64,000 nucleotides of DNA from Deferribacterales bacterium UBA4806 (GCA_002402635.1 DHGE01000126.1:893-64892); one strand, 5' to 3'; counted from the stretch's first letter, positions 15,649 to 52,705 are shown. The notes: generated by a model from the letters alone, not told the origin. Numbers and translations are program-made.

Positions 15649-15687
15649 CTATATATATTATAAGTAAAATTGCCATTTCATTTAGGG
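15649..15687 (-). promoter_or_regulatory. phage-specific promoter-like motif (upstream of the clamp loader)
   Basis: Minus strand: CCCTAAATGAAAT-N11-TTATAATATATATAG. Confidence 0.45.
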
Positions 15688-17073
15688 TAAATTTAAAAAT
15701 TTTCTTTCTCCCCAAGATTTATCCACCTCTGCTTTCTCTACTTCCACTGTTAAAGGTATGTTTATCCATTTCCAATTTTCCCTAATATCCTCTGTAGCTA
15801 TTCTAACCATTAACTTTATAGCATTATCACACTCTTCAGGTAAAATATCAGCCGTTATTTCATCGTGAATTTGGGATACTAATCTACTATCCATTTTATG
15901 CTCCCTAAATACTCTATCAATTTCTACAAATGCCCAAAGTAAACAATGAAAAGCAGTCCCCTGAAAGGGATAATTAGTTATATCTTTTTTACTCATCAAT
16001 CCATAACAGCGAAAACCTGTTTTCATCTCAATATATCCTTTTTTCTGATACTCATACCATACCTTATCTTTCCATCTACTATATTGTTTATATCTCACAT
16101 TCCAAAACTGGTCTTCTACTTTTCTAACGTGCTCCAAAAACTTATCAAATTTTTTAACATTACCTGATTTATCAAGCGTAATTAGTTCCTTATCCTTCAA
16201 ATGAACCAAAGCTGGAGTATCATCTTTGAGATAAGCCTGTCTTGCCCATTTAAGAAGATTTAATACACAATTTCCATAGTAATCTCCATAAAATTGTGGG
16301 AATACAAAACCATTTTTTGCTCCCTGTCTTAATACAGCTTCTCCAGAATGTCTTTTATCCAAATCATCCAACATATATAACTCTATAGCCATATCTTTGT
16401 GCATATCTCCGTGTAGAACATCATAACATAATTTTTCATCTTCTACATAACAAACTGCCATTTTTACTTCAATAGCCGAGTAATCCATAGAAACAAATTG
16501 GTGTCCTGGTCTCGGAAACAAAGCCTCTCTACATATTTTTGTAGCTTCCTTATCTCTCTTGGGTATATTTTGAAAATTTGGACTATCGCTAGAAGAGCGA
16601 AAAGTCTTAGTTAAATGTAAATTAAAAAATGGGTGAATATAGCCATTTACCTGCTCTCTCATAAACGCATCCAAATAAGTATCTCTAATCTTACGAAACT
16701 TTCTCATCTCCAATAACATATCCAATTCTGGTATATCTAACTCTGATAAAGCTTCTTCATCTGTAGCCGGTTGCCCTGATTCTGTAAATCTTACAGGTTT
16801 TAATTTTAGTATTGAATATAAAAATCTGCTCAACTGAGGATTTGAATTAAGGTTAGGTCTTTTCCCACCAATTGACCTGCTCCATTTTTTCCCAAAATTA
16901 CTTTCATAAATTTTCTGTTCTAATTCTGCTATTCTAATTGTCAACTCTTCTTTTTTTCTCTTACAATATTCCATATCCACTCTCATTCCTGTATATTCTG
17001 CTCTTTGTAAGGCTAAAGCTCCTTTATGAAAAAGTTCATAGGCTTCCTTTGTACTAGGTACACTTTTAACCAT
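15682..17073 (-). CDS. polA: family A DNA polymerase, polymerase (palm/fingers/thumb) subunit only
   Basis: SSSDSPNFQNIPKR, RQGAKNGFVFPQFYG (motif B) and QIHDEI (motif C). ATG at 17073 has GAGG 8 nt upstream; the track start at 17079 is TTG. Confidence 0.85.
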   Translation of the reverse strand: MVKSVPSTKEAYELFHKGALALQRAEYTGMRVDMEYCKRKKEELTIRIAELEQKIYESNFGKKWSRSIGGKRPNLNSNPQLSRFLYSILKLKPVRFTESGQPATDEEALSELDIPELDMLLEMRKFRKIRDTYLDAFMREQVNGYIHPFFNLHLTKTFRSSSDSPNFQNIPKRDKEATKICREALFPRPGHQFVSMDYSAIEVKMAVCYVEDEKLCYDVLHGDMHKDMAIELYMLDDLDKRHSGEAVLRQGAKNGFVFPQFYGDYYGNCVLNLLKWARQAYLKDDTPALVHLKDKELITLDKSGNVKKFDKFLEHVRKVEDQFWNVRYKQYSRWKDKVWYEYQKKGYIEMKTGFRCYGLMSKKDITNYPFQGTAFHCLLWAFVEIDRVFREHKMDSRLVSQIHDEITADILPEECDNAIKLMVRIATEDIRENWKWINIPLTVEVEKAEVDKSWGERKFLNLP

Positions 17074-17088
17074 TAGCAAAACCTCATT

Positions 17089-18330
17089 TTAATTTTCTTC
17101 ATCATATTCTATCTCCTTCATTTGTTTAATAGCCAGCCTATACGTAAATATTGTATCTAATCCATTATAAAGCAATAATTGTCTTTTACCTTCGCTACTT
17201 TCTAACAACCTATCAATCCTATTAAGTGAATTTCCATTTTTACTATCCACTGGTTGAAGATAAGAAGATATTTCACTATCATAATCCACTATCCCAAAGG
17301 TCACATACGTTAAAAATTTTAATCCAGTTATACCTTGTCTATTGTCTAAAATATGGGAGGCTAGCATAGTATCCCATTTCCAATTTCTTACTTCATAGCC
17401 TAACTTGTTTTGTATCCAAGTATGTTCAAATTTCATATTATGTGCTATTTTAGGTATATTGGGATTTCTTAAAACTCTTTTAATCTCATACAATACCTTC
17501 TCATCCTCTGGTAATAAAAATGAAAAGGCAGATTTTTCCGAATTACAAAAAGCAAATGAAATTATTTTACTCTCCTTACTATACCCTTTTAAACTATTTG
17601 TCTCTATATCTACCGCTATCAATCCTTTTATCTCTCTCAACAATTCAATTAATCTATCAGATGAACTCACTATTTCCACCTGAGATTTTTCATCTTCATA
17701 TTTCGGAAAAGGTTTATTATGCGTTGATAAGGCTCTTTCTAAATCCTGTTTCCAAATGATTTGAACTTCTCTTTCATCTCTCTCAACTACAAAGGAAGGA
17801 TGCCAAACAGGACACAGCCACGCATTAAAATCTCTATCAGGTATTACCCAACCTCTCCATTTTGTAATACCTCCCAAATCTTTTTTCCATCTATGTCCTA
17901 AAAGACAATTTATAGCAGTATTACCAAAAGCCATAATCACTTTGGGTTTTCTTTCCATTATAACTTTTATGATACTTGCTCTACAACTATTTATTTCCTC
18001 TGAGGTAGGTTCCCTATCATTTCCTTCTTTATCTACTACTCTACAACGTACTGCATTAACATTCAAACAATCCTCGAAAAGGTCAATTCCTAACCTTTCA
18101 TATTCTCTTTCTAATCTTCGTCCAACAACACCTTGCCAAGGTTTCCCCTTTCTATCCTCTTCTTGCGTGGGACTCATACCTATATTTAAAATCCCCTTTT
18201 TAAAATTACCAAAAGGCGGCATTTTAGGATTAATTGAATAACGATACAATCCACAAGAAACACAAGAATAAAATTTCCCATCAGGCCGAGAAACACTTTG
18301 TGTTTCTTTTAAATCAAAAAATCCTCTCAT
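17089..18330 (-). CDS. family-4 UDG-like domain fused to a 3'-5' exonuclease domain (N-terminal polymerase subunit)
   Basis: CVSCGLY, GMSPTQEEDRKGKPWQGVVGRRL, NAVRCR and WHPSFV (UDG4 pattern). Then IAVDIETNSL and later exonuclease motifs. Confidence 0.8.
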   Translation of the reverse strand: MRGFFDLKETQSVSRPDGKFYSCVSCGLYRYSINPKMPPFGNFKKGILNIGMSPTQEEDRKGKPWQGVVGRRLEREYERLGIDLFEDCLNVNAVRCRVVDKEGNDREPTSEEINSCRASIIKVIMERKPKVIMAFGNTAINCLLGHRWKKDLGGITKWRGWVIPDRDFNAWLCPVWHPSFVVERDEREVQIIWKQDLERALSTHNKPFPKYEDEKSQVEIVSSSDRLIELLREIKGLIAVDIETNSLKGYSKESKIISFAFCNSEKSAFSFLLPEDEKVLYEIKRVLRNPNIPKIAHNMKFEHTWIQNKLGYEVRNWKWDTMLASHILDNRQGITGLKFLTYVTFGIVDYDSEISSYLQPVDSKNGNSLNRIDRLLESSEGKRQLLLYNGLDTIFTYRLAIKQMKEIEYDEEN

Positions 18331-19387: not shown

Positions 19388-20380
19388 TTATAATCCTAAA
19401 TTATTTCTTATTTTAAAAACTATATTACTTTTTTTAACATTTAACCATTTTTCTAATTCCAAAAAATATCTTACATTTATAAGAGCCCTCATTTGAAATT
19501 GCTGTAAATCATCATAAGAATATCCATCTTGCTCTAAAAGTTTTAAAAAATTAGAAGTTAAATAACCAGTACCTTTTTTAATTTTCCTATCCGAAACAGT
19601 ACATACAAGAGCAGATTTTGAAAAATTAGAATTTTTAAAACCTCCTTGAGGATAATATATAGCACCCATACCTGCAGAAATCTTCCAACTTGCAGAATCA
19701 CAACTTGTCCAAGGTAAATTTAGAAGTATTTTCTTATTTGTAACTGCAAATCCATGTGTATCAACATTAACATTATTACGATATAAATATTCAAAAACTG
19801 ATAACATCCACTGATTTCTTTCATTTGTCGAAACATCATTTGCAGGTGAAATCCCAATATAATCGATATACTCAAGCATTTTATCTAACCACTTCCAACT
19901 TTCTCCTTGGTGAAATACATGTATTGGTTTTATACCTTGTTTTATCATTTCTTTCATATTTTGAAATCCAGCATTCGCCGCGCGTTCAATTAATTCAATA
20001 TTTTCAAATTTCCTATTCCTAGTTAAAGATTGTGTTTGTCCCACAATCCCGGGAATTACATCAAGATTTACAATATAAACCTTTTGATTAGAAAATTTTG
20101 AAACTTCATTAATTATTTGATGTGCATATTTAATATAATTATCCAAATTAATTAACTTTCCTTTATTCCATGCAGTAAAAGCCCCTGAATCAACTATAAT
20201 ATTCCCTTCCATATCTAATGGAATATTATTTATCCACCCTTTAAATTGGTCTGGGTAAATATAGGAAACAAGCACATTTTTAACCCCCGCATTTATAAGA
20301 TTAAACATCCTCTCATTACTACAACCCCCCCAAACAGCCGCAAAATAAAGTTTAATTGGCTTCATACTCAACCTCAACAT
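19388..20380 (-). CDS. dpdA: DpdA-type DNA 7-deazaguanine transglycosylase (TGT superfamily)
   Basis: IVDSGAFTAWNKG motif, TIM-barrel-like length, adjacent to the que genes. AGGAGG lies 11 nt before the Met at 20380. The longest ORF extends to 20404. Confidence 0.8.
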   Translation of the reverse strand: MLRLSMKPIKLYFAAVWGGCSNERMFNLINAGVKNVLVSYIYPDQFKGWINNIPLDMEGNIIVDSGAFTAWNKGKLINLDNYIKYAHQIINEVSKFSNQKVYIVNLDVIPGIVGQTQSLTRNRKFENIELIERAANAGFQNMKEMIKQGIKPIHVFHQGESWKWLDKMLEYIDYIGISPANDVSTNERNQWMLSVFEYLYRNNVNVDTHGFAVTNKKILLNLPWTSCDSASWKISAGMGAIYYPQGGFKNSNFSKSALVCTVSDRKIKKGTGYLTSNFLKLLEQDGYSYDDLQQFQMRALINVRYFLELEKWLNVKKSNIVFKIRNNLGL

Positions 20381-20810
20381 TAATAAAAGTTCCTCCTCGC
20401 GCATTAAAATTACTAATCACTTTCATCCAACGAGGTGAACAAACAGAAACAAGGTCCTCTAAAATCCTATTTGTAAGTGTTTCCATAAAACAACCATATT
20501 GACGATATGATAAAAGATAAAGTTTTAAACTTTTAGTTTCAATACATTTCTCATTTGGTATATATCTAATAGTAATAGTTGCAAAATCTGGCTGACTAGT
20601 CTTGGGACATAACGAAGTAAACTCACCAAACTTAAATTCAGTAATATAATTTCGATTGGGATATTGATTCGGAAAAACCTCAAGTAAATCTGGACAAGGT
20701 GAATCATATACATACTTTGTATTATGTGCGCCAAGTTGTATAAGCCCTTCAACTTCATCTTGTTTTGTATCAACTTTTGTACTTATTTCCTTTTGTTTAA
20801 AATCTTCCAT
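20352..20810 (-). CDS. queF: NADPH-dependent 7-cyano-7-deazaguanine (preQ0) reductase, unimodular type
   Basis: EFTSLCPKTSQPDFATITIRYIP and ETKSLKLYLLSYR (QueF motif). Confidence 0.9.
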   Translation of the reverse strand: MEDFKQKEISTKVDTKQDEVEGLIQLGAHNTKYVYDSPCPDLLEVFPNQYPNRNYITEFKFGEFTSLCPKTSQPDFATITIRYIPNEKCIETKSLKLYLLSYRQYGCFMETLTNRILEDLVSVCSPRWMKVISNFNARGGTFINVEVEYEAN

Positions 20811-20891
20811 ATATTGCCTCCTTATAATTCTTAGTAACTACTATAAAATAATAAGATACAATTTTATCCAAACTATTCATCTGTACTATAA

Positions 20892-21455
20892 TCAAATTCT
20901 ATTCCTAAGTCGTGCCATAAATTCATCCTTACAACCATCTTTATTTTCAAGAAAAATTCCACGTGCTTCAATCACTTCAAAAGGGCAATCCCATTTTTTA
21001 AGACCTCGCATTTCCTTACAAAGATGTCTTCCTGTCATTAAAAGGATACACCCAAGAGGATGGACAGCTTCCTCAATATAATCTAAAATATTTTTAACTA
21101 ATCTTTCTTGTATTTGAAGGCGCGCGGAAAAATAATCAATCGTTCTACCTATTTTACTTGCTCCCAAATATCCATATTTTGAATCAGGAATATAACCAAA
21201 ATAATAATGCCCAAAAAATGGAACCATATGATGCTCACATATACTAAAAAAATATCCTTTATCCGTAATTAACCCTTGAGGAGTTTCATCATTAAAAATA
21301 GTAATCACAGGAGGATTATCATGGTACCCACGAAATAACTCACAATACATTTTAGCAATTCTCAACGGTGTATCTTTTAACCCTTGACGTTCTGGGTCTT
21401 CACCTATCTCTAAAAGAATTTGTTTAAAAAGATTTGAAATTTTATTCATATTCAT
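20892..21455 (-). CDS. folE: GTP cyclohydrolase I
   Basis: DTPLRIAKMY and SICEHHMVPFFG. Confidence 0.9.
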   Translation of the reverse strand: MNMNKISNLFKQILLEIGEDPERQGLKDTPLRIAKMYCELFRGYHDNPPVITIFNDETPQGLITDKGYFFSICEHHMVPFFGHYYFGYIPDSKYGYLGASKIGRTIDYFSARLQIQERLVKNILDYIEEAVHPLGCILLMTGRHLCKEMRGLKKWDCPFEVIEARGIFLENKDGCKDEFMARLRNRI

Positions 21456-21458
21456 CTT

Positions 21459-22142
21459 CTATTGTCCTCCTTCATATTCAATAGGGTCTTTAATACCTAA
21501 TTCACAAAACGCTTCCAATCTTTCTTGACAACTTCCACATTTCCCACAACTAACAGGTTGACTCTTATAACATGTTCTTGTAAGATAATATGGAACCTGA
21601 GGATTACATTCCAATCCTTTTTTAAGAATAGTAATTTTATTATCATTAATTAATGGTGCCAGAACTTCTACTTTACAATTAGAAGATAAAAAAATAGCAG
21701 TATCCAATGCCTTTATAAATTCTTTTCGACAATCCGGGTAAATATAATGGTCTCCTTGATGGACACCAAGTGCAATAGCATTTGCATCAATTGATTCAGC
21801 CAATCCTGCCATAATGCCCGCAAAGATAAAATTACGTTCGGGAACAACCGTTACAGACATCGATTTATCATTATAATAACCCTCAGGAATATCACCACAA
21901 TGAAGAAGTAAATTAGATTTAAACACTTTCATAATATTGGAAATATCCATCATGTACTTTGTAATAGAAAATCCTTGTTTAAAATAAAATTCAAATACAG
22001 ATTGAGCTGCAATATTTTCCCATTTATTATGTTTAGAACCATAATAAAATATACAACAATGTACATCATAACCTTGCTCAAGTAAAATTCCAAGTAAAGT
22101 TGCTGAGTCCATCCCACCTGACAATCCCATAACTACTTTCAT
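21459..22142 (-). CDS. queC: 7-cyano-7-deazaguanine synthase
   Basis: VVMGLSGGMDSATLL (PP-loop) and C-terminal Cys cluster CYKSQPVSCGKCGSC. Confidence 0.9.
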   Translation of the reverse strand: MKVVMGLSGGMDSATLLGILLEQGYDVHCCIFYYGSKHNKWENIAAQSVFEFYFKQGFSITKYMMDISNIMKVFKSNLLLHCGDIPEGYYNDKSMSVTVVPERNFIFAGIMAGLAESIDANAIALGVHQGDHYIYPDCRKEFIKALDTAIFLSSNCKVEVLAPLINDNKITILKKGLECNPQVPYYLTRTCYKSQPVSCGKCGSCQERLEAFCELGIKDPIEYEGGQ

Positions 22143-22163
22143 AAAATCCTCCTATACGTTCTA

Positions 22164-22204
22164 CTTATATTTATATTATAAGTAAATATACAATTTCATT
22201 TAGG
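22164..22204 (-). promoter_or_regulatory. phage-specific promoter-like motif (upstream of queC)
   Basis: Minus strand: GCCTAAATGAAAT-N11-TTATAATATAAATATAAG. Overlaps the queE stop codon. Confidence 0.4.
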
Positions 22205-22880
22205 CTAATCCTAAAATTTTATGTAACTGTAATGAAATAATTACTCTATCTCTAAATTTATCAGGGAAAAAGAAAAGAACCCCTTTATTTTTTGTATCTG
22301 CATTCATAGGACTGATGATAAACATTCCCTTATACCCCATACTATCTAATTCTATCATATCCGTAACCACAAAATCTCTATCTTTATGATAATAAGGAGA
22401 AACAGTAGAAGCAACTACATATTTAAAAATAACTGGAGTTTTATTCCAATTATAAAAATCTATTCCTAACTCTCCAATAGGACGTGATTGATTTTCAGAG
22501 GAAGGTCCTTTTCTATCTATAACCCAACCTCCACGACCTTGTATCTCTGATATAACAGGAATTGGTAAAGAACCATTAGTTTCTATTTGGACATAATGTC
22601 CTGCCAATAATAAAATTCTAATAAAATCAATACAATTCTCTGCCAAGAGAGGTTCTCCACCTGTAATCAATACTTGTTTGGTTTTAATCTTATTAAATAC
22701 ATCATCCGCAGAATATTCTATTCCGCCTTTAGAGGATTGCGCTTTAACAGTGTCGCAGTAGATACAACGTAAATTACATTTTTGAAATCGAAGGAATATA
22801 CAAATACTTCCCTGAGGAAAGAAACCGGATTCTCCACTAATAGAAACAAAAGGTTCTTCATGTAGATATAATTTCTTCAT
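22200..22880 (-). CDS. queE: 7-carboxy-7-deazaguanine synthase (radical SAM)
   Basis: FQKCNLRCIYCDT (CxxxCxxC), ITGGEPL. Confidence 0.85.
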   Translation of the reverse strand: MKKLYLHEEPFVSISGESGFFPQGSICIFLRFQKCNLRCIYCDTVKAQSSKGGIEYSADDVFNKIKTKQVLITGGEPLLAENCIDFIRILLLAGHYVQIETNGSLPIPVISEIQGRGGWVIDRKGPSSENQSRPIGELGIDFYNWNKTPVIFKYVVASTVSPYYHKDRDFVVTDMIELDSMGYKGMFIISPMNADTKNKGVLFFFPDKFRDRVIISLQLHKILGLA

Positions 22881-23305
22881 ACCTTTTCTCCTTTATTACT
22901 TTCTTGCCTCAAAAAAAATTCTACATCTTTTCTTTCTAATATAGCTACACTATCGGGCGATTCCCAAATACTAATACTTTCTACGCCTTCAAGTTTTGCT
23001 TTGAATACCAACTGCTTCCATATCCAAAGTAACAGATTCTCCGCTGTCGGATTTTCTACATAATTATTAAGAACATTATGGTCTAATAATTCTATTATGT
23101 GTTTCGACATTACTTTCTTCAATTCTGAAAAATCAAAAACCATTCCACTTTCTAAATCAATGCGTTTTTTGATTGATACCTTTACTTTCCATTCGTGTCC
23201 ATGCCAATTATAACATTTACCATTATAAAAAGGTAATCGATGAGCAGAAGCAAAAGACATCGTCTTCGAAACTGTAACAAATGGTAATTCTTTTTTTTCT
23301 TCCAT
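22877..23305 (-). CDS. queD: 6-carboxy-5,6,7,8-tetrahydropterin synthase
   Basis: FASAHRLP...C...HGHEWKV (PTPS-family His/Cys pattern). Confidence 0.85.
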   Translation of the reverse strand: MEEKKELPFVTVSKTMSFASAHRLPFYNGKCYNWHGHEWKVKVSIKKRIDLESGMVFDFSELKKVMSKHIIELLDHNVLNNYVENPTAENLLLWIWKQLVFKAKLEGVESISIWESPDSVAILERKDVEFFLRQESNKGEKV

Positions 23306-35791: not shown

Positions 35792-36505
35792 ATGATGAAA
35801 AAAGAAATAAATGAAACTTCAATTAGCAGATTATTAGAAAGGAATGAAAAATTTGATTGTTGCTTTATTACAGCTTTCAGACTAACAGATAACTGTGATA
35901 TGGGCAGACCTTATACTAAAAGAGAAAATATGGCAAGAAATTACTCTTTGGAATTAAAATTAGCACGTAGTTGGTATAGTGTTACCAGAGTCATTGGTAC
36001 TTATGAAGATAAAGGAAAAAAACAAAAAGAAATATCCTTTTTTGTAGTAGATGATAGAGTAGATGAAGATGACTCTTTGAAAAAGAGACAAGAATATACA
36101 AAAGAATTTTTAGAGGATATGTTATATTTAGGAGAATTATATGAACAGGATAGCATTTTATTCCTTCCCAAAGGTTCTATTTTAGGCAAAGCTAAACCTA
36201 TATTATATGGAACTAATGATTGTCCAAGAGCTATAGGCAAAGGAAATAAAGAATATTTTAATGGGGGTTCAAGAATTAATAAAACATCTAAACTATATAC
36301 TACTATTGTTAATGGTAAGCCTATGTATTTTGAAATGGGAGTAAATGAAGTTTATGGGGCTCAAACAGGGCTTGGAAATTTGGGGTTAGCTATATTAGCA
36401 AATAAACCTTGGAAAGATTTACTTAAATACATAGATGAAAAATATGAAAGAAATTATTTTAAAGACCCATATATAGAATATTGTAAAAATAGGAGGTTGA
36501 AATGA
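35792..36505 (+). CDS. hypothetical protein
   Basis: ORF in the tiling, AGGAAG RBS. Confidence 0.55.
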   Translation: MMKKEINETSISRLLERNEKFDCCFITAFRLTDNCDMGRPYTKRENMARNYSLELKLARSWYSVTRVIGTYEDKGKKQKEISFFVVDDRVDEDDSLKKRQEYTKEFLEDMLYLGELYEQDSILFLPKGSILGKAKPILYGTNDCPRAIGKGNKEYFNGGSRINKTSKLYTTIVNGKPMYFEMGVNEVYGAQTGLGNLGLAILANKPWKDLLKYIDEKYERNYFKDPYIEYCKNRRLK

Positions 36506-37821: not shown

Positions 37822-39825
37822 TTGGAAAACACTATGAAAAATACTTTTGAAAAAATCTTAAAAGAGATTGTTACAAACTCTCATTATACAACCACACCTT
37901 ATGATTTTTCTGTTTTGAATATTGAAATTTTAGAAAGTGCTTATGAAAGATTTTTAAGTAGGACTATAAATCTAATACACTTACATCAAATAAAAATAGA
38001 AGAAAATCCAGAGGGTAGAAAAGCTGGAGGAGTTTATTATACTCCTGAATATATTGTTGATTATATTGTGAAGAACACTGTTGCTAAAAAAATTGAAGGA
38101 CTAACTCCAGAGGAAATAAAGAATATAAAAATACTTGATCCAGCTTGTGGTTCTGGAAGATTTCTAACCAGTGCTTATGATTGCCTTTTAGAATATCACA
38201 AAGGATGGTATTCAAAAAATCAAAAAAATAAGGAATACAAAAAAGATTGGTATTCAACTGAGGATGGTAACCTCAAAATATGCATTGATAAAAGAGGAGA
38301 AATACTTAGGAACAATATTTTTGGTGTAGATATTGACAGGGAAGCAACAGAAGTTGCAATGATGAGCTTATACTTAAAAATGCTTGATGATGGACTTGAT
38401 AAAGGAGGGAGAGATCTTTCCTTTATGAAAGGACAGGTATTACCAGATATGGAAGATAACATAAAGTGTGGAAATAGTTTGGTCGGTCCAGATTATTTTG
38501 ATGGTAATCCTTTAGCTAATGATAAAGATGAACGTAAAACTATTAATCCATTTGAATGGAAAGCTGAATTTAAAGAGATAATGAATAATGGTGGTTTCGA
38601 TATTATTATTGGTAATCCCCCATATGTTGATATTAAAGGATTGGATCCAAAGATAGTAAAATATTATTTTAAAAAATACTCTACTGTTGAAAATAGGATG
38701 AACCTTTATGCTGTGTTTGTTGAAAAATCTTTAATTTTACTAAAATGTGAAGGATACTTTGGTTTCATTATTCCTAATTCTATTTTATACAATAAATCAT
38801 ATTACAAATTAAGATCACTTATTTTAAATAACACAACTATAAATAAAGTAATAAGATTACCTGATAATGTATTCCAAAATGTTAAAGTGGAAACAATTAT
38901 TTTAGTAATTGAAAATAAAAAAGTGGTTACAAATATATCACAGAGCGAAGTTATTATTTATCCAAGAGAGGCAACTATTAATGAAATAAATATAGAAGAC
39001 AAAAGTAAAGTTATAATATTTAATCAAGAAACTTGGAAATCTGAAGACAATATTATTAATATCTCCATTAATGTTTTAACAAAGCAACTGTTAGAAAAAA
39101 TAGAAAAAAAAGCCACACCATTAATAGATATTTGTGATTTTTCTTTAGGTATAACACCTTATGATAAATATAAAGGGCATACAAAATATCAAATAAAAAA
39201 TAAAATATTTCATTCTAAAATGAAAATAGATGAAACTTATAAACCCTTATTATCTGGAGAAAATATAATTAGATATGGTGTTTTTTGGGATGGCAATAAC
39301 TATATCCGTTATGGAAATTGGTTAGGAGCACCCAGAGAACAACGATTCTTTGTAAAATCCAGAATACTAGTTAGACAAATTCTAAGTGGCAAACCACTAA
39401 GAATTTACGCAGGATACTCAGAAGATGAACTTTATAATACACAAATTGCATTTAATCTTTTAATAAAAGATGGCGTTGATATCCAACTTAAATATTTACT
39501 TGCAATATTGAATTCAAAATTAATGAGCTTTTATCATAAAGAGAAATATTTAGATCCATCAAAAACTTTATTTCAAAAGATTTTAATAGTAAATACAAAG
39601 AAATTCCCAATGGTTATCCAAAAAACACAACAACAGCTTATAGCAGAGCTTGTAGAAAATATGATTAATGCTAATAAAGAACTATTAAATTGTAGGTCAG
39701 ACACAGATAAAAATATTATAGAAAGACAAATTAAATATCTTGATAAAAAAATTGATGAACTTGTGTATAGTATTTATGAATTGACAGATGACGAAATTAA
39801 AATAATAGAAGAAAGTTTAGGATAA
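37822..39825 (+). CDS. N6-adenine DNA methyltransferase (Eco57I/TaqI-like gamma class) with target-recognition domain; no nuclease domain
   Basis: YYTPEYIVDYIV, ILDPACGSGRFL (motif I), IIIGNPPYVDIKG (motif IV NPPY). The start is uncertain (TTG 37822, ATG 37834). Confidence 0.85.
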   Translation: MENTMKNTFEKILKEIVTNSHYTTTPYDFSVLNIEILESAYERFLSRTINLIHLHQIKIEENPEGRKAGGVYYTPEYIVDYIVKNTVAKKIEGLTPEEIKNIKILDPACGSGRFLTSAYDCLLEYHKGWYSKNQKNKEYKKDWYSTEDGNLKICIDKRGEILRNNIFGVDIDREATEVAMMSLYLKMLDDGLDKGGRDLSFMKGQVLPDMEDNIKCGNSLVGPDYFDGNPLANDKDERKTINPFEWKAEFKEIMNNGGFDIIIGNPPYVDIKGLDPKIVKYYFKKYSTVENRMNLYAVFVEKSLILLKCEGYFGFIIPNSILYNKSYYKLRSLILNNTTINKVIRLPDNVFQNVKVETIILVIENKKVVTNISQSEVIIYPREATINEINIEDKSKVIIFNQETWKSEDNIINISINVLTKQLLEKIEKKATPLIDICDFSLGITPYDKYKGHTKYQIKNKIFHSKMKIDETYKPLLSGENIIRYGVFWDGNNYIRYGNWLGAPREQRFFVKSRILVRQILSGKPLRIYAGYSEDELYNTQIAFNLLIKDGVDIQLKYLLAILNSKLMSFYHKEKYLDPSKTLFQKILIVNTKKFPMVIQKTQQQLIAELVENMINANKELLNCRSDTDKNIIERQIKYLDKKIDELVYSIYELTDDEIKIIEESLG

Positions 39826-39846: not shown

Positions 39847-40005
39847 ATGAAAAGTAAGAAATCAAAATTAGATAGGGATATTGAAAAGTTTTTCAGGGAT
39901 ATGTTTGAAACCTTGGAAAACAATAAATTAGAGGACATTTTATTTGTGGTAGAAGGTAAGAAAGAGGAAGAGGAAAATAATAAGAAAGGGGATAAAGATG
40001 AGTGA
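39847..40005 (+). CDS. hypothetical small acidic protein (52 aa, not in ORF track)
   Basis: AAGGAGGA RBS. Its stop overlaps the next ATG. Confidence 0.35.
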   Translation: MKSKKSKLDRDIEKFFRDMFETLENNKLEDILFVVEGKKEEEENNKKGDKDE

Positions 40006-40639
40006 GTACAATTTTACAATTAGTTTTGAAATAAAATTCCCTCAGGATTGGATTCAATATCCTATTATGGCTATAGGGCGCAAGATATCACCTGAAAATT
40101 ATGATAAATGTTTTCATCTGGCTATAGAATTTATGAAATTATTTGATTTACGATTGCTTAGATATTTAAAAGTTATTTATTTTCTGGAATATATGCAATT
40201 ATATGGTAAAGAAGGATGGGGTGGTACCCGAACTAAAAATTCAATCTATTGCACTTATAAAGGCTATTATACTGATTATGATGTGTTGCGAATACTTGTT
40301 GAAGAATTTAGTTCAGTATTATGGTTAAATAATCCTTTTACCAAGACAGAAAAAGAACAATGGTATCAATGTTTGCCTATAGATTTTAAATATTATGGTA
40401 CTGGAATAGAAGTATTGGGTGAAAAAGATTTATTGAAAGAAAATGAAAATTTATTTAACAAAGGATTTCTTAATACTTATGCTATGAGTAGCTTGGAAAA
40501 TGATCTTAATCAAATTTTTGTGTATATGTTTTTGAAAAAAGATGAATTAAATAATATAATAGAAAACAATGAATTGATAAAAAGAAAGGTAAAAATTGTA
40601 AAGGAATGGTTAACAAAAATAATTTTAAAACTATTATAA
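39998..40639 (+). CDS. hypothetical protein
   Basis: Last gene of the plus-strand block. Confidence 0.5.
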   Translation: MSEYNFTISFEIKFPQDWIQYPIMAIGRKISPENYDKCFHLAIEFMKLFDLRLLRYLKVIYFLEYMQLYGKEGWGGTRTKNSIYCTYKGYYTDYDVLRILVEEFSSVLWLNNPFTKTEKEQWYQCLPIDFKYYGTGIEVLGEKDLLKENENLFNKGFLNTYAMSSLENDLNQIFVYMFLKKDELNNIIENNELIKRKVKIVKEWLTKIILKLL

Positions 40640-42370
40640 CTTAAACCGATTGATTAATTCCTGTAATTTATTATTTAGATTACTTAGATTTTCCATCTCA
40701 TCTCCTACCGTTTCAATTATAGACCTGGTTTCAGCGAAAGCTGATGAGATTTCCTGAATTGAGGAGCTAGAATTTTCCAGTGCTTCGGATTGTTGGTATA
40801 TAGCAGGTTTTATTTTATTTATAAAATTATTAAAAATTGTTTCCATATTATTCATTATGGTGTTGAAAATATTGGTAGTATTGATTATATTTTCTTGACT
40901 ATCAGAAATAGAATTATCTACAATTTCTATTTGTTCATTAACCTCCTTATTTTGACTTACAATTTCATTTAGTGTGGTTGTTATTTCCTTTATTGAATTC
41001 CTTGTTTTCTCCGATAGTTTTCCTATCTCTCCCGCTATCACTGTAAAACCAGCTCCTTCCTGTCCTATTCTTGCCGCTTCAATACTTGCATTTAAGGCTA
41101 ATAGATGGGTATTTTCTGCTACATCATTTATGAGATTTAATATAGGATTTATTTCCTTTATAATATTACTGTAATTGTGAATACGGAGGGTTAGATTATC
41201 ATAGTTATTCTGTATGGTCTTTATGTTGGTTTGTATTTTATTAAGATTAGCAATTCCTTTATTATTATCTTCTTTAGCCTTCCCAAGTATTTCCACATCT
41301 TGTTCCACTATATCATTTATTTCTTTTCCATTTTGATTTATCTCTTCTACGGAGGAGGCGATATAGGTTAGTTGTTCATTTTGAACTTGTACGGTTTTTG
41401 TAGTTTGCTCCATAGCGGCACTAACTTGTTCACATATTTGATTTACTGTAGTGAAATTATTTTTTATATTATTAATTAAGTTAGCTATGGTATCTACGAA
41501 TTCATTGTAATATTTTACAATAAGATTAAATTCATCTTTTTTATTGAGGGTTAGTTTTTGTGTTAAATCTGCTTCCTTACTGGACATTACTTGTAATGAA
41601 TTGGTTATTTCTGTAAGTGGTTTTACTACCAGATTTCTGAATACAAAGTAATAGGAGGTATTTAATATTAAAAACATAATAAAATAGGCTTGCGTTAATG
41701 ATATTAATAATTTTCTAATTTGATATGTTATAAATTTGTTAGGTATCCCATACATTACATACCAGTCGTTTTCCATATTTTGTAAACTAAATTTATCACT
41801 GACGAAATAGTGTTTTTTAACACCATCGAAGGTACTGATAAAATATTTTTTACCACTTACAGTATTGTTCACTATTTGTTTTACTTCCGGGGCTGTACTA
41901 TTTATTATTTTTTCCCCACCAGGGTGAAATAGTATATTTTTATCACTATCAATAACTGTAACTATATCATTCTTATTTATCATTAATTTTGAGTAATGTG
42001 TTGAAAAGTAATCCAGTTTTAAGGTTACCGCTAGAATTCCTATTAATTCATCATTTTGTTTTATTGGTACTGCTATTGGGATTGTTCTATTTTGGTTTAT
42101 GTAGGATATATGAATTTTCCCGATATAATAGGATAAATTATCCTCTATTATTTTTTGTACCCATTTTTCTTTTAATGTACTTTGTCCTAAAAGTTTTTTA
42201 TCCTCTAACACGCCTAAAACAAAATCACCGTACCCTACTTCATATTCTTTATCATATATATTTAAGTTATCTTTTTTATCCATTAGGTTAATTATTCCTA
42301 TGTCAAAAATTGCTTCATTGTTTTTCATAGCTTCGTTTAAGGTGTATATTGCTTCCTGTCTATATTCCAT
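40634..42370 (-). CDS. methyl-accepting chemotaxis protein (dCache-like sensor, TM, HAMP, MA domain)
   Basis: LLALNASIEAARIGQEGAGFTVIAGEIGKLSEKT (MCP signalling hairpin). A TM plus HAMP precede it. The reading frame stays open upstream to 42652 and encodes the missing first TM helix. Confidence 0.85.
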   Translation of the reverse strand: MEYRQEAIYTLNEAMKNNEAIFDIGIINLMDKKDNLNIYDKEYEVGYGDFVLGVLEDKKLLGQSTLKEKWVQKIIEDNLSYYIGKIHISYINQNRTIPIAVPIKQNDELIGILAVTLKLDYFSTHYSKLMINKNDIVTVIDSDKNILFHPGGEKIINSTAPEVKQIVNNTVSGKKYFISTFDGVKKHYFVSDKFSLQNMENDWYVMYGIPNKFITYQIRKLLISLTQAYFIMFLILNTSYYFVFRNLVVKPLTEITNSLQVMSSKEADLTQKLTLNKKDEFNLIVKYYNEFVDTIANLINNIKNNFTTVNQICEQVSAAMEQTTKTVQVQNEQLTYIASSVEEINQNGKEINDIVEQDVEILGKAKEDNNKGIANLNKIQTNIKTIQNNYDNLTLRIHNYSNIIKEINPILNLINDVAENTHLLALNASIEAARIGQEGAGFTVIAGEIGKLSEKTRNSIKEITTTLNEIVSQNKEVNEQIEIVDNSISDSQENIINTTNIFNTIMNNMETIFNNFINKIKPAIYQQSEALENSSSSIQEISSAFAETRSIIETVGDEMENLSNLNNKLQELINRFKL

Positions 42371-42618
42371 ATTTTCTGGGTGTAATAAAATATTTTTTAC
42401 TGTAGTGGTTTTTGATATTGAGCTTAGATAAGATATATAATTATTAAAAAAATTGTTTAGGTTATCTTGTACATTTCTGTTAATTGAGTTTGTTATAATT
42501 TTATACCTGCTTATGATAATTCTACTGTTTTGAAAATAAGTGATTATACCGTAAAAAACGAAGGTAGATAATGTGATAATATTAATTAAAATTAAAAATT
42601 TATTGATTAATTTCTTTT

Positions 42619-44319
42619 TTATAATATTCTCAATACCTCTTCTACTGTGGTTTTACCTTGCTTTATTTTTTCCATAGCGTGGTCTTTAAGGGTTTTCATC
42701 CCCTGTTCTTTTCTAGCTATCTCTTCCAGTTCCTCAATTATTTTATTTTGTAACAAGGCTTTTTTTAATTCCTTATCAAACCTCACCATTTCGAATATTC
42801 CAGTCCTTCCCTTAAATCCTGTGCCATTACACTTTTCACAGCCTCTCCCCTTCATCGGGATAAATGAATTTAGTTCATCTTTATTAAATCCAAAATTTAT
42901 TAAAAATTCTTCGGTATATTCATTATTCTCAGTTTTACAATTAGGACAGATAGTTCTTATTAAACGCTGGGCTATAGCAAGTTCCATAGTACTGGTTATC
43001 AAAAACCTTTCAATTCCCATATTAAAAAATCTGTCAATAGTTCCTATAGCATTGTTTGTATGTAATGTTGATAAGGTTAAATGTCCAGTTAAGGAGCATT
43101 GCATAGTCCCCAAAGCTGTTTCCCTATCTCTTATCTCTCCTACCATTATAATATCGGGGTCTTGTCTCAAAAAGGTTCTGATAATTCTATTATAAGTCAT
43201 ACCTGTTGCTTCGTTTATCTGACTCTGGTTTATTCCCAGAATATCATATTCAATAGGGTCTTCCACTGTGAGTACGTGTTTATGGTTTTCGTTTAACTTG
43301 TTTAGTATAGCATATAGAGTGGTAGATTTCCCCATACTTGTAGCACCTGTTACCACTATCAATCCTGTACTTTTATTTATACTGGAGTCTATTATTTTCA
43401 AGTGGTCTTCATTCATTCCCAATTTTTCCATATCTAGCAGGTATTTTTCTTTAACTAATAATCTTAAAGCTACCTTTTCTCCATAAAGTGTAGGCAATGT
43501 AGATACTCTAACATCTACCAATTTATTTTTAATAGTTATAAATATTTTTCCATCTTGAGGCATAAGTTTATTAGCTATGTCCATCCTCGCTATTAATTTA
43601 CATCGACTAATAAGAGGACTTTTTATTTTAGCGGGTAGGTTTATTATTTCTTGTAAAATCCCATCAATTCGCATTCTAATTCTACAATGGTCTTTATAAG
43701 GTTCTATATGTATATCTGTAGCATTGTCCCGTATGGCTATGTCTAACAAATTATTTAGTAAATTGATAATTGGGGCTTCATCTTTTGTAACGTTTATGGT
43801 GGTTAAATCTAATACAGGTATCTTTCTTTCTTCGGACTCCTCTTGTATGTCCTTGAAATAATCTTGCCTTAAATATTTCTGTAATTCTTTTTTTCCAATT
43901 CGATTTTGTATTGCTTGGTCTATATATTTTTCAAGTTCGATATAGAATTCAATCTTTTTACCTACTATGAATTCAATTTCGTTTTTTATTGTTAAGTCAG
44001 CTACATTACCGCAGGCAACTTTTATGGTATTTCCTACCATATCGAAGGGGACTATTTTATATTTTTCGCATATCTCATCACTGATTAAGGTATTTATTTC
44101 GGGTTTTATGTTAACTTTGTTTAAGTTCACATAAGGAACACCAGTTTGCTCACTTAAGGCTTTCAATATTTCTTCTTTCGGAACATACCCTAAACTATCC
44201 AAAATTGAACCAACTTTTTTACCACATTTATTCTGTATGTCTAGGATTTCTTTTATCTGGGTGTCAGTTAATAATCCCTTGTTTTTAAGGATTTTTAATA
44301 ATTTGTTATAGTTGGTCAT
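42619..44319 (-). CDS. pilB: PilB/GspE-family secretion/type IV pilus ATPase with N-terminal MshEN/T2SSE_N domain
   Basis: VTGATSMGKSTTLYA (Walker A), IMVGEIRD (Walker B region), LSTLHTN (His box), tetracysteine CPNC...CEKC. Confidence 0.9.
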   Translation of the reverse strand: MTNYNKLLKILKNKGLLTDTQIKEILDIQNKCGKKVGSILDSLGYVPKEEILKALSEQTGVPYVNLNKVNIKPEINTLISDEICEKYKIVPFDMVGNTIKVACGNVADLTIKNEIEFIVGKKIEFYIELEKYIDQAIQNRIGKKELQKYLRQDYFKDIQEESEERKIPVLDLTTINVTKDEAPIINLLNNLLDIAIRDNATDIHIEPYKDHCRIRMRIDGILQEIINLPAKIKSPLISRCKLIARMDIANKLMPQDGKIFITIKNKLVDVRVSTLPTLYGEKVALRLLVKEKYLLDMEKLGMNEDHLKIIDSSINKSTGLIVVTGATSMGKSTTLYAILNKLNENHKHVLTVEDPIEYDILGINQSQINEATGMTYNRIIRTFLRQDPDIIMVGEIRDRETALGTMQCSLTGHLTLSTLHTNNAIGTIDRFFNMGIERFLITSTMELAIAQRLIRTICPNCKTENNEYTEEFLINFGFNKDELNSFIPMKGRGCEKCNGTGFKGRTGIFEMVRFDKELKKALLQNKIIEELEEIARKEQGMKTLKDHAMEKIKQGKTTVEEVLRIL

Positions 44320-44609
44320 TTTCTTGTTTTAGATAAAGTTTAATTACTCTTTCATACTCTTCAAGTTTGTTTAAGTTTATATAAGGAATATTTGTCTGTT
44401 CCTTTAAAGCTTTTAATATCTCTTTTTTCGGGGCATAGTTTTGATTATATAAAATGGAGATAATTTTTTCCCCAGTTTTGTTTTGTATATCTAAAATTTC
44501 CTTTATCTGGACATCGGTCAATAATCCTTTATCCTTAAGGATTTTTAAAATTTTATTGGTTTTCATTCTTATACCTTAGATAAAGCTTGATTATCCTCTC
44601 ATATTCTTC
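44116..44609 (-). repeat. diverged tandem duplication (units 44366-44609 and 44116-44365)
   Basis: Each unit runs from ..EEYER.IKLYL..stop through M..N.LKILK.KGLLTD.QIKEILDIQNK....NLNK. Both junctions keep a 14-nt stop/start overlap. Confidence 0.7.
44306..44566 (-). CDS. stand-alone MshEN/T2SSE_N-like domain protein (chimeric product of a tandem duplication)
   Basis: Residues 1-68 align colinearly with PilB residues 1-68. The last 19 aa (LEEYERVIKLYLKQENDQL) match the C-terminus of the upstream lipoprotein. Confidence 0.6.
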   Translation of the reverse strand: MKTNKILKILKDKGLLTDVQIKEILDIQNKTGEKIISILYNQNYAPKKEILKALKEQTNIPYINLNKLEEYERVIKLYLKQENDQL

Positions 44610-44867
44610 AATAGTGTTTTCATATCCTCTTTTATTATCAATCAGGTTTTGTAAATCCATATTATCCATACACCATTTGGTTTGGTTATCTACTATATAT
44701 TTTCTAACCATAACTTCTTTTAAATCAGGTCTTTCAACCAAGGTTAAATCGGGTAGTTCAGATTTAATATAAATGTATTTATATACTGGTTCCTTTACAG
44801 TTTTGGTACAAGCTAAAATAGTAAATAGTAAACCTATTAAAATTAATTTTTTCACGGTTGTCCCCAC
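44553..44867 (-). CDS. lipoprotein (o-spanin-like or PilP-like)
   Basis: Signal peptide plus lipobox: KKLILIGLLFTILAC. Confidence 0.5.
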   Translation of the reverse strand: MGTTVKKLILIGLLFTILACTKTVKEPVYKYIYIKSELPDLTLVERPDLKEVMVRKYIVDNQTKWCMDNMDLQNLIDNKRGYENTIEEYERIIKLYLRYKNENQ

Positions 44868-45196
44868 TTTCCTAAATCAATTTCATCTTTGTCATTTAGA
44901 TTAATATTAGGTAGTCCTTGTTTTTGTCTTTCCTCTTTTATTTGCCTATTTATTTCCTTTAACAATAAATCATCCTGTAATTTTTTATCTAATATTTCTT
45001 TGTTTTCCTGGTTAACCTCTATTAGGTCATCTACTTTTTTCTCACTTGTTTTTAGGTCTTTATTTAATCCTTCTATTTTTTTGTTTTTGAATTTTAGCAG
45101 GGTATATAATACTCCTATTATAGCAGTCCAAATTAGGTATGTGTTTGTTTTTAAGAATTCCCAGATTTTCTTTATAATTTCTATAAAACTCATCAT
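44852..45196 (-). CDS. bitopic membrane coiled-coil protein (i-spanin-like)
   Basis: N-terminal TM (YLIWTAIIGVLYTLL) followed by a coiled coil. Overlaps the downstream lipoprotein gene by 16 nt. Confidence 0.4.
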   Translation of the reverse strand: MMSFIEIIKKIWEFLKTNTYLIWTAIIGVLYTLLKFKNKKIEGLNKDLKTSEKKVDDLIEVNQENKEILDKKLQDDLLLKEINRQIKEERQKQGLPNINLNDKDEIDLGKWGQP

Positions 45197-50559: not shown

Positions 50560-51075
50560 TTATCCTTTTATAACAGGTACATCAATTTCTACAGCCATTT
50601 CTGTAGCAGATACTGCTTTCCCAATTCTTTGTACCACGTGTCCTGCTGTGGTAGGTGGTGTTAAGGATATTGCTCCAGGTGTTACATCTGATAAGAAATA
50701 AACACTACCCCCAGTTAATCCACTCAAAGCATTGTTAAATCCTGCCAAGTAAACATTAGCATCTACAGAAGCACCATAGCTTTGTAATACAAAACCATCA
50801 GCTCCTTTACCGATAGAACTAGCATCTGCCTTCCTTACCTTTATTGTTCCCGCATCAGAAAATACATTTACGAAATCCCCTGCGGCTAATGCTTCATAGG
50901 TGGGCAATACTTTTACTTCTTCACCTACACCAGTTGGTAGTAAAGAACTATCAATTTTTCCTTGCGCATCCAATGCTATAATTTTACCAGCACTATCCAC
51001 GCCTGTGCTAATACTTGTTGCTACTACCTCTTCCAAGTATCCATTTTGATTAAGTTTGATATATTTGTCTGCCAT
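50560..51075 (-). CDS. small fibre/receptor-binding-like protein, paralog family member
   Basis: LAAGDFVNVF...ADGFVLQSY...VYLAGF...GSVYFLS. Confidence 0.5.
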   Translation of the reverse strand: MADKYIKLNQNGYLEEVVATSISTGVDSAGKIIALDAQGKIDSSLLPTGVGEEVKVLPTYEALAAGDFVNVFSDAGTIKVRKADASSIGKGADGFVLQSYGASVDANVYLAGFNNALSGLTGGSVYFLSDVTPGAISLTPPTTAGHVVQRIGKAVSATEMAVEIDVPVIKG

Positions 51076-51101: not shown

Positions 51102-51530
51102 TTAATTTTTTACAAATGGCTCGCCTAATTTAACATAAAATGTATTTTCAGTAAAAGCTACCCCCATTCTTAATACAAAACCTGTAGTGGGTGGTACTTT
51201 AGTTAGCTCTCCTACTTCATTTACATAATATGTACTTGCTATTTCTAAATTGTAAAAACCCTGTATTATTCCTTGTTTTACTATTGTTATATTTTCATCT
51301 TTTTTAGCCCCAGTGCCTGCTATACCTACTGTTGAAAATATATTATTTATATCCTGATTATTGCTTATATATGCTTTTCCATCAGTACCTATTTTTATTA
51401 CTTTATGACTAATTATATCCTCTCCAGCTGTTAATTGTAATGTATCCGGGATAGGCAGAACAAGAACATCACGTAGGTTAACCTGTATATTTTCGTCTTT
51501 TAAATTAACAAAAATCTTATCAGTTTGCAT
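51102..51530 (-). CDS. small fibre/receptor-binding-like protein, divergent paralog
   Basis: Same length class and C-terminal pattern (ASTYYVNEVGELT). Confidence 0.4.
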   Translation of the reverse strand: MQTDKIFVNLKDENIQVNLRDVLVLPIPDTLQLTAGEDIISHKVIKIGTDGKAYISNNQDINNIFSTVGIAGTGAKKDENITIVKQGIIQGFYNLEIASTYYVNEVGELTKVPPTTGFVLRMGVAFTENTFYVKLGEPFVKN

Positions 51531-51803: not shown

Positions 51804-52130
51804 TTAAGGGGTAACATCTTTTACCACCTTAATCCTGTCATTTAAAATAGTTTTAGTAATATTACCTTTTTTAAACTCAATATCATAGTTATATATTGAA
51901 TTTTCTTTTAGTTTATTAGTATCATTGGAAGTTAGCTCTATCATAGTTTTTCCATTAACTGCGTCTATGTGTTCCGTTACTATTTTTTGTAAAATTATAT
52001 TATCTTTCAAGTCCCTCAATGTAAAAGTAACGATAGCATCTGTTAGATTTATGGGTGTAGTATAATTAGTGGTGAATTCTAATAGGATTTGTTTACTATC
52101 CCCTTGTATAATGTCCTGTAATTTTATCAT
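51804..52130 (-). CDS. Ig-like/BppU-N-like small structural protein
   Basis: IQGDSKQILLEFT...INLTDAIVTFTL...YNYDIEF matches a beta-sandwich pattern. Confidence 0.4.
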   Translation of the reverse strand: MIKLQDIIQGDSKQILLEFTTNYTTPINLTDAIVTFTLRDLKDNIILQKIVTEHIDAVNGKTMIELTSNDTNKLKENSIYNYDIEFKKGNITKTILNDRIKVVKDVTP

Positions 52131-52705
52131 TAAGTTAACTCCGTTATATTATATTCTATCTGTAAAAATTCCTCAGTCATTTCTATCTTAATATCCAATG
52201 GGATTATGTTTGCTGGAGGTGTTTGTAAAATAAGTTTTTGAGGATAACTTAAATTTACCAGTAATTTATCCTTGCTTATTGCTACCCCAACTTTTTGTAA
52301 AATTATTTTATTATATCCTACGTTAGCATAGTCCACTTTTCCATTGTAATTTAAGTAATAAGTTTTCCCTACTTGTAGATTTTTCAACCCTGTATTAATA
52401 CCATTCAGATAAACCAATGTTAAATTATCTGATAAGGTATCATTTATAATAAATCCCTTAGCATATCTTCCATTTATACCAGCATCGGCTTTTAGGATTT
52501 CATTGTTTTCATTTATGTAAACAAAATCCCCAGCTTCCATATCTTCAAAAGCTTTACAAATAACAGTTCTGTATTTATAAGTCTCCTTTATAAAATTGTT
52601 AGCAATAATACCATTTTCATTTAATGCTAGGAGACTACCTGATTGATTAGCAATATTCTCTTTTAATAGTCCCGTATTTTCTAATGTAACAAACGATGAA
52701 GGCAC
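52130..52705 (-). CDS. small fibre/receptor-binding-like protein, paralog family member
   Basis: MEAGDFVYIN...AKGFIINDT...VYLNGINTG...GKTYYLN. Confidence 0.5.
   Translation of the reverse strand: MPSSFVTLENTGLLKENIANQSGSLLALNENGIIANNFIKETYKYRTVICKAFEDMEAGDFVYINENNEILKADAGINGRYAKGFIINDTLSDNLTLVYLNGINTGLKNLQVGKTYYLNYNGKVDYANVGYNKIILQKVGVAISKDKLLVNLSYPQKLILQTPPANIIPLDIKIEMTEEFLQIEYNITELT

Follow-up and report, generated by a model that had tools for sequence, protein, structure and literature searches.

Motility and chemotaxis genes in viral metagenomes are mostly unverified matches at the edges of contigs, and the literature mentions motility genes in phage genomes in passing. Chemoreceptors in phages are already known; a full-length PilB, the extension ATPase of type IV pili, at an internal position in phage DNA is rare. 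Phage action at the extension motor has been described for Tip (phage D3112), Aqs1 (DMS3) and Zip (JBD26), small peptides of temperate Pseudomonas phages whose targets are host PilB or PilZ and which lack homology to the motor; these phage inhibitors, but no phage homologue of PilB, are covered in a recent review on how PilB is controlled (PMC11656802). Here we analyse a stretch of 64,000 nucleotides (the window) filed under Deferribacterales bacterium UBA4806 (GCA_002402635.1 DHGE01000126.1:893-64892), in which a gene for a 566-residue PilB/GspE-clade homologue of the type IV pilus extension ATPase (42619-44319, minus strand) and a gene for a full-length methyl-accepting chemotaxis protein (MCP; 40634-42622, minus strand) adjoin each other among phage genes. 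Both belong to the phage, and a third, 86-residue protein contains a copy of the PilB N-terminus. A phage equipped with a pilus motor and a chemoreceptor suggests that movement or adhesion of the infected cell may be altered.

The phage ATPase has the length and the three domains (N1D/MshEN, N2D and C-terminal ATPase) of cellular PilB (Geobacter metallireducens 5TSG, 5TSH and 6OLJ; Calditerrivibrio and others) and shares with it Walker A and B, the Asp box, the His box, both arginine fingers and the tetracysteine motif. It differs in being only 40-44% identical to the cellular proteins, which share 56% among themselves, and in its setting: the cellular relatives are found in aroE-pilB-pilT-pilC, whereas the phage gene stands alone in a phage late operon. 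The cultured Dolichospermum phage Dfl-JY45 also encodes a T2SSE-family ATPase, but this is 27% identical to the phage PilB, contains no MshEN domain, and is accompanied by T2SSF (platform) and PilO-like genes with which it may build a machine of its own; the phage studied here has the ATPase only. Phage-borne MCP signalling domains occur in the cultured jumbo phages vB_VmeM-Yong XC31 of Vibrio (QAX96201.1, annotated as hypothetical, with the same dCache_1-HAMP-MCPsignal layout as the receptor described here) and A4 of Escherichia (USL83455.1). The receptors of jumbo phages and of IMG/VR contigs are at most 29% identical to ours and are stand-alone genes, whereas the present gene overlaps the pilB stop codon and has no canonical start. 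The PilB N-terminus by its profile score and the 86-residue mini-protein by its modelled fold resemble the MshEN/GSPII domains that bind cyclic di-GMP (c-di-GMP; Vibrio cholerae MshE, 5HTL; Thermus thermophilus PilF GSPII-B), the binding motif being incomplete. Three features were without match in these comparisons: a PilB that is both full and internal, the probable translational coupling of its gene with that of a receptor, and a duplicate of its N-domain under selection.

The exact PilB sequence was found on a 115,459-bp ENA contig, on which the window corresponds to record positions 5724-69723. The DNA read by us comprises record positions 1-79,508 (79.5 kb of the 115.5-kb contig), and statements below on the absence of genes refer to this part. 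Within pilB, the N1D/MshEN region lies at 43903-44319 and the ATPase core at 42628-43785, with Walker A at 43324-43347 (all minus strand). Pfam matched T2SSE at residues 179-564 (E 4e-124) and MshEN at residues 60-139 (E 1e-13), and the Walker A sequence GATSMGKS, the His box and the tetracysteine motif are all present; an earlier note made from the DNA letters had read the gene as a complete PilB/GspE ATPase with these four features, and Pfam and the motifs agree. NCBIfam ranked the type IV-A PilB family first (TIGR02538) and GspE second, both below their equivalog cutoffs (553 versus 675.65 bits and 514.5 versus 630.25 bits, respectively). PilB structures solved for Geobacter, Myxococcus and Thermus could be aligned with the protein along its whole length (E about 1e-126).

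To analyse conservation, we aligned the protein with 15 cellular PilBs representing several phyla. [quoted passage not shown] A tetracysteine zinc motif is present in PilB and GspE and absent from PilT and FlaI. R217 would be the equivalent of the arginine which makes the inter-chain contact in GspE, a clade-specific residue. Work on the Geobacter structures has assigned roles to the conserved residues (PMC5424180). We considered and rejected the idea that the substitution R252L removes an arginine finger, as the fingers are R271 and R286 (PMC5424180), both of which are kept. With all catalytic residues intact, the phage PilB looks catalytically competent. Its closest homologues are cellular (43-44% identity) and stand in aroE-pilB-pilT-pilC operons of Deferribacterota-type contigs; a search that was not exhaustive for PilB revealed no cellular homologue closer than 44%. 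The mean identity to the 15 cellular proteins is 42%, compared with 55.6% among those proteins, which places the phage PilB on a long branch.

The receptor gene had first been delimited as an open reading frame (ORF) at 40634-42370, encoding 578 residues with a single transmembrane segment (TM) and none at the N-terminus, which cannot be the topology of a receptor whose sensor is periplasmic. The dCache_1 score of this version was only 36 bits (cutoff 45). The frame remains open for 94 more codons upstream of the ATG at 42370, up to a stop codon at 42653-42655, and the stretch 42371-42652 (minus strand), formerly read as intergenic, contains no in-frame stop. Off-frame open stretches in this phage have a mean of 7 codons and do not go beyond 50 (n=1250). 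The upstream part reads KKKLINKFLILINIITLSTFVFYGIITYF... and encodes TM1 and the N-terminal dCache helix. Extension by 84 codons gives a protein with two TMs and a dCache_1 score of 49.5 bits across profile positions 3-226, which aligns from residue 2-4 with cellular receptors of 650-675 residues (for example KNILLHPEN versus KNILINPED). Judged from the open frame, the second TM, the higher dCache_1 score and the full-length alignment, the annotated ATG is an internal methionine and the 249-nt 'gap' between pilB and mcp is coding. Gene callers restricted to ATG, GTG and TTG have cut the receptor short in three public assemblies, thereby creating a false intergenic gap.

The full-length receptor, as defined by the open frame, Pfam and alignment, comprises 662 residues if translated from an ATA at 42622 and 663 residues from an ATT at 42625. 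From the N-terminus it consists of TM1 (about 42533-42613), the periplasmic dCache_1 sensor (residues 36-279, 41786-42517), TM2 (residues about 302-323, 41654-41719), a HAMP-like linker (residues 328-379, 41486-41641; 22.8-23.2 bits versus a Pfam cutoff of 25) and the MCP signalling domain (residues 449-627, 40742-41278; 102 bits versus a cutoff of 34.6, E 3e-29) with its hairpin tip at 41012-41110, all on the minus strand; both TMs were assigned by hydrophobicity. The earlier note had described a full MCP with a dCache-like region, a TM, HAMP and the hairpin: the signalling domain and the hairpin quoted there hold, while the protein was truncated at the N-terminus and HAMP stays below its cutoff. 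In the hairpin tip 20 residues are invariant with homologues, the departures being Q504N, A519I, R524A and R534G, and the methylation-helix consensus is recognisable by comparison with Tsr (SAAMEQTTKTV, SSSIQEISSA). The gap pattern against 44H receptors together with a near-gapless match to CtpM tentatively places the receptor nearest to length class 40H. As MCPsignal and the extended dCache_1 pass their cutoffs and the tip is invariant, the receptor, too, looks competent. The nearest relatives, found by exhaustive search, are 33-37% identical and lie on cellular contigs of 29-31% GC; a word-index search had reached only 26% identity. The closest of them (P0362, 37%; ENA contig ERZ27283219, 463-2429) has likewise been called without TM1, with a 95-residue ORF directly upstream, and could be a second case, within this receptor family, of a start that was mis-called or split. 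Weak PADLOC matches to ZorA, which overlap the helical cytoplasmic region of the receptor, were disregarded.

None of the 94 upstream codons is ATG, GTG or TTG, and the sole ATG (42370) would yield a receptor without TM1. Two candidate starts are the ATT at 42623-42625, which has a GAGG 14 nt upstream, and the ATA at 42620-42622, which overlaps the pilB stop codon as ATAA. Both ATT and ATA are permitted bacterial start codons. A Shine-Dalgarno core was found at -17 to -7 in 50 of the 71 genes of the window and not before the ATG at 42370; the background chance of a core in that interval is about 14%, so that the upstream GAGG is modest support. ATAA is one G>A change away from the classic ATGA stop/start overlap and was possibly ATGA formerly. 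A non-canonical start implies that the receptor would be expressed at a low level and dependent on coupling. A fusion of PilB and the receptor by -1 frameshifting was rejected: the receptor frame is open for just 11 codons before the lysine run, where there is no slippery heptamer.

The account of two genes in the earlier note was incomplete, as a third member of the module had been missed. Two tandem-duplication units (44113-44372 and 44363-44619, minus strand; period about 250 nt, 70-73% identity) straddle the junction between the 3' end of a lipoprotein gene and the 5' end of pilB. This old duplication gave rise to an ORF for 86 residues (44306-44566, minus strand): its first 68 residues duplicate the four-helix half of MshEN (PilB residues about 4-69), and its tail duplicates the lipoprotein C-terminus. 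Since the duplication spans the junction, pilB already adjoined this phage gene when the duplication took place. Comparison of the mini-ORF with the PilB N-terminus gave a dN of 0.19, a dS of about 1.75 and an omega of about 0.11, values which are approximate because dS is saturated and only 65 codons are compared; they indicate purifying selection on both copies and long residence in the phage. An AlphaFold model of the mini-protein is a four-helix bundle with a tail helix (pLDDT 77; 87-91 across residues 11-50). In fold it comes closest to the half of MshE-N that binds c-di-GMP (5HTL), to GSPII-B of Thermus PilF and to the N-domain of Xanthomonas citri PilB (7LKO), and the model superimposes on the four-helix c-di-GMP-binding half with a root mean square deviation of 1.2-1.8 A over about 60 residues.

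In the NCBIfam profile for the c-di-GMP-motif domain the PilB N-terminus scored above the cutoff (40.7 versus 38) and the mini-protein below it (32 bits versus 38). We also checked both by eye against the published relaxed motif, which consists of two tandem 24-residue motifs (PMC5013675). The PilB N-terminus departs from motif I at two positions and from motif II at one, both lead arginines being replaced by lysines, and the mini-protein lacks both glycines of motif II. The mini-protein may be a stand-alone protein that binds a regulator or a ligand; from the modelled fold and the motif check, titration of a partner appears at least as likely a role as ligand binding.

These data also bear on whether the module is decaying cargo, that is, an old capture which is losing its function, beginning with the receptor through loss of its start codon, and which has no present role. 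A full-length receptor without ATG, GTG or TTG would fit, a single G>A change being enough to turn ATGA into ATAA, as would the lack of a Shine-Dalgarno sequence before pilB and the strong divergence of both proteins (42% identity for PilB, at most 37% for the MCP). But ORFs of 566 and 662 codons are intact where unselected frames average 7 codons, the functional motifs are all preserved, and the duplicated PilB N-terminus has the omega of 0.11 given above. Moreover, ATT and ATA can serve as starts, and coupling to termination of pilB is plausible from the gene architecture. We regard decay as unlikely.

The source of the DNA is a contractile-tailed phage of virulent type with a genome of about 115 kb and 29% GC. 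The minus strand of the window from 1 to 31 kb encodes an exonuclease, RecA, a clamp loader, a split family-A DNA polymerase, a processivity factor, DnaB with its loader, a replication initiator, a ParB-like nuclease, a primase and a sigma-like factor. The plus strand from 31 to 40.6 kb forms an early/anti-restriction block with an SNF2 helicase, a possible SAM lyase, a TSCPD protein and a type IIG-like methyltransferase; its last gene is an ORF for 213 residues of unknown function (39998-40639), which is convergent with mcp and overlaps the mcp stop codon with its own by 6 nt. From beyond the window down to 40.6 kb, the minus strand carries the late block, with a baseplate wedge, a virion structural protein, three very large proteins, a fibre-like protein, a 1192-residue DUF4815 tail/adsorption protein common to many myoviruses, and a set of small membrane or secreted proteins around spanin-like genes. 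No integrase is present in any annotated part, and no tRNA was found in the DNA read.

At the end of this baseplate/fibre/spanin-like array stand pilB and mcp. Genes between 51530 and 40634 are at most 26 nt apart, and overlapping stop and start codons chain the genes in the order i-spanin, o-spanin, mini-ORF, pilB and mcp. GC and GC3 are 0.32 and 0.28 for pilB and 0.27 and 0.23 for mcp, compared with a GC3 of 0.21-0.30 for phage genes. The sequence across the junctions is identical (100%) in the ENA, Logan and two JGI assemblies, which may stem from one population or sample series. Position, overlaps and composition thus assign both genes to the phage. Phage-like composition, the long branch of PilB, the duplication beside the lipoprotein gene and selection on both copies mark the module as old in this phage.

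The earlier note had seen phage genes on both sides and no integrase, as annotation of either flank confirms, and had named as fatal to its account that the segment be a chimera of the assembly or belong to the host next to a prophage. Most PilB matches in public viral collections are of that kind, six IMG/VR loci being at contig ends and GenBank MT835655 carrying pilB-pilT-pilC, and 36 kb of the present contig lie outside the inspected part. Here, however, the genes have phage genes on either side and lie over 40 kb deep among them, GC and GC3 show no break, stop and start codons that overlap join them to phage genes, the duplication has joined 5' sequence of pilB to the 3' end of a phage lipoprotein gene, three assemblers produced identical junctions, and the cellular homologues found are no closer than 44% (PilB) and 37% (MCP). 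An origin from host DNA or a chimera is close to refuted.

A tblastn search with PilT and PilC found no other type IV pilus gene, and genes for PilC, PilT, a pilin, a secretin or PilM are absent from the DNA read, as are che genes (CheA, CheW, CheY). The absence of platform, pilin and secretin had been stated in the earlier note together with the view that a lone ATPase needs host machinery, and both are borne out for the 79.5 kb: without a platform partner PilB must act through the machinery of the host, and the same lack of platform, pilin, secretin, PilT and Che genes refers the receptor to the host as well. The preservation of the full catalytic apparatus favours an active replacement motor. 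In our best explanation the module is an old one which would be expressed late, its genes being co-transcribed and translationally coupled with the lysis genes. The phage PilB would engage the PilC/PilM machine of the host, where, as an active replacement motor, it would sustain or increase the extension of pili (attachment, aggregation, twitching) outside the control exerted on host PilB; the receptor would join the host receptor arrays and make host taxis respond to a signal of the phage's choosing; and the mini-domain would titrate away a partner, or a ligand, of the N-domain in host PilB. We give this explanation as a whole a probability of about 0.5. That a behaviour cassette of receptor, motor and regulator-binding mini-domain, made together with the lysis genes, steers the location or adhesion of the cell late in infection, for example by aggregation with uninfected cells so that the burst reaches new hosts, is a further and rather doubtful idea.

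Several observations weigh against this explanation. At 34 positions where at least 14 of the 15 cellular homologues agree, the phage PilB carries a substitution; these include three x-positions of the P-loop (GPTGSGKS to GATSMGKS), E250N and R252L, and an altered or lost activity is possible in view of them. Both NCBIfam scores are below the equivalog cutoffs, pilB starts without a Shine-Dalgarno sequence, and the receptor has no canonical start that would include TM1, the GAGG before the candidate ATT being modest evidence. To these come the saturated dS, the possible common origin of the assemblies and the 36 kb beyond our view. Finally, the phage PilB might act on pili in either sense, to activate or to block them.

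Blockade is the main rival. It holds that the phage PilB and the mini N-domain compete for PilC/PilM or for regulators without productive extension, so that host PilT retracts the pili and infected or lysing cells cease to adsorb pilus-dependent phages, the phage's own progeny included; the outcome would be loss of the receptor or exclusion of superinfecting phages. Manipulation of pili and superinfection exclusion, both put forward in the earlier note, are plausible roles. There is precedent for phages that switch off pili via PilB (Tip, Aqs1 and Zip; PMC11656802), and the long branch with its 34 substitutions at cell-invariant positions, P-loop included, would be in line with blockade. A selected stand-alone N-domain fragment resembles a competitor or decoy, and in X. 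citri the PilB N-domain is the surface bound by PilZ (fold match 7LKO). Yet all catalytic, arginine-finger, His-box and zinc residues are kept, which a poison subunit would not need and which argues mildly against this proposal. The known phage solutions are small peptides rather than ATPases of 566 residues, and pili may or may not be the receptor of this phage. We therefore consider blockade to be clearly less probable than a replacement motor; decay, an export role and host contamination are less likely than either.

The genes upstream of the module bear on the export role. An i-spanin-like protein with an N-terminal anchor and a coiled coil (44852-45196, minus strand) has a weak match to the Rz-like spanin family phrog_739 (E 2.6e-4). 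Its gene overlaps by 16 nt that of a lipoprotein (44553-44867, minus strand), which has a signal peptide with the lipobox ILAC and no family match, and which is o-spanin-like by its architecture and its position after the Rz-like gene; the 3' end of the lipoprotein gene in turn overlaps the start of the mini-ORF by 14 nt. The earlier note had considered the small envelope proteins as possible partners of PilB in export or lysis. Translational chaining of pilB to spanin-like genes amid small membrane and secreted proteins would be in line with a phage-specific device in which PilB powers egress or the action of spanins or holins. From the PHROG match and the architecture, however, the neighbours look like ordinary two-component lysis equipment, an i-spanin/o-spanin pair, and the DNA read contains neither a T2SSF platform gene nor a gene for a pilin-like protein (class III signal peptide) or a secretin. 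Among cultured phages, a T2SSE ATPase was found only in Dfl-JY45, which also has T2SSF and PilO-like genes; the present phage has not. No tailed phage is known to need a PilB-type ATPase for lysis. An export or lysis device is thus very improbable.

Searches of viral collections support the view that PilB matches in phage databases are mostly host contamination. Two conserved PilB peptide patterns were found at only six IMG/VR loci, all at contig ends. GenBank matches labelled as phage PilB were rejected as mostly unverified short contigs or host-derived; MT835655.1 ('Bacteriophage sp.') is a cellular pilB-pilT-pilC operon. Records of 'Acinetobacter phage MD-2021a' likewise carry cellular pilB-pilT-pilC or gspE loci. 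MCP relatives are more widespread, with about 363 IMG/VR stretches encoding them, some at internal positions on contigs of 160-437 kb; none of the best 80 viral MCP loci has PilB within 10 kb. Relatives of the phage itself were not found: its PilB and SNF2 helicase peptides had no match in IMG/VR, the best SNF2 relatives are at most 54% identical, PolA is at most 28% identical to that of isolated phages, and one metagenome scan gave only unrelated cellular PilBs (33-44% identity). PADLOC did not assign PilB, the MCP or the mini-ORF to any defence system. An Rfam scan gave no match and no c-di-GMP riboswitch, and a promoter/terminator scan was uninformative, the counts equalling the shuffled expectation in AT-rich DNA.

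Against the background of edge-of-contig matches, the locus is a clean case of a full motor and a full chemoreceptor which lie deep in a phage, are tied to its late genes and have been under selection until synonymous sites saturated. If the proteins are active, they would represent a tractable case of a lytic phage which reprograms the surface behaviour of its host with host-type machinery rather than inhibitors. Such a naturally diverged PilB, still docking on a foreign PilC/PilM, would also be useful for mapping those motor surfaces that matter.

The contigs with receptor relatives, the PilB matches and the spanin pair weakly suggest a host that is diderm, of low GC, and in or near the Deferribacterota. 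On one contig with a receptor relative, the valyl-tRNA synthetase is closest (58%) to that of an uncultured Deferribacteraceae genome. Assignment of the host from PilB alone was rejected, the signal being too flat (40-44% identity to many phyla).

Some further genes of the phage deserve mention. A complete 7-deazaguanine set (DpdA/TGT-like, FolE, QueC, QueE, QueD; 19388-23305, minus strand) implies that the phage DNA probably contains a modified guanine. The 667-residue Eco57I/type IIG-like methyltransferase (37822-39825, plus strand) aligns with the 1011-position type IIG profile of PADLOC only from position 300 onwards: methylase and specificity domains are kept and the nuclease part is absent, which makes an orphan methylase for self-protection probable. 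Near it, at 35792-36505, there is a faint match to SAM lyase. Three small paralogous ORFs of the late block (50560-51075, 51102-51530 and 52130-52705, minus strand) all match one region of phrog_4368, a family of unknown function. The family-A DNA polymerase is split into two adjoining ORFs of 413 and 465 residues (15682-18330, minus strand), which match consecutive parts of a single PHROG profile. There are two GIY-YIG/NUMOD3 homing endonuclease genes (1986-2798 and 11036-11893, minus strand) and, in other stretches of the genome (5195-6409 and 11363-12571, counted within those stretches), two RRXRR-HNH homing endonuclease genes of 402 residues each; the two HNH copies share 80.6% DNA identity in different genome regions.

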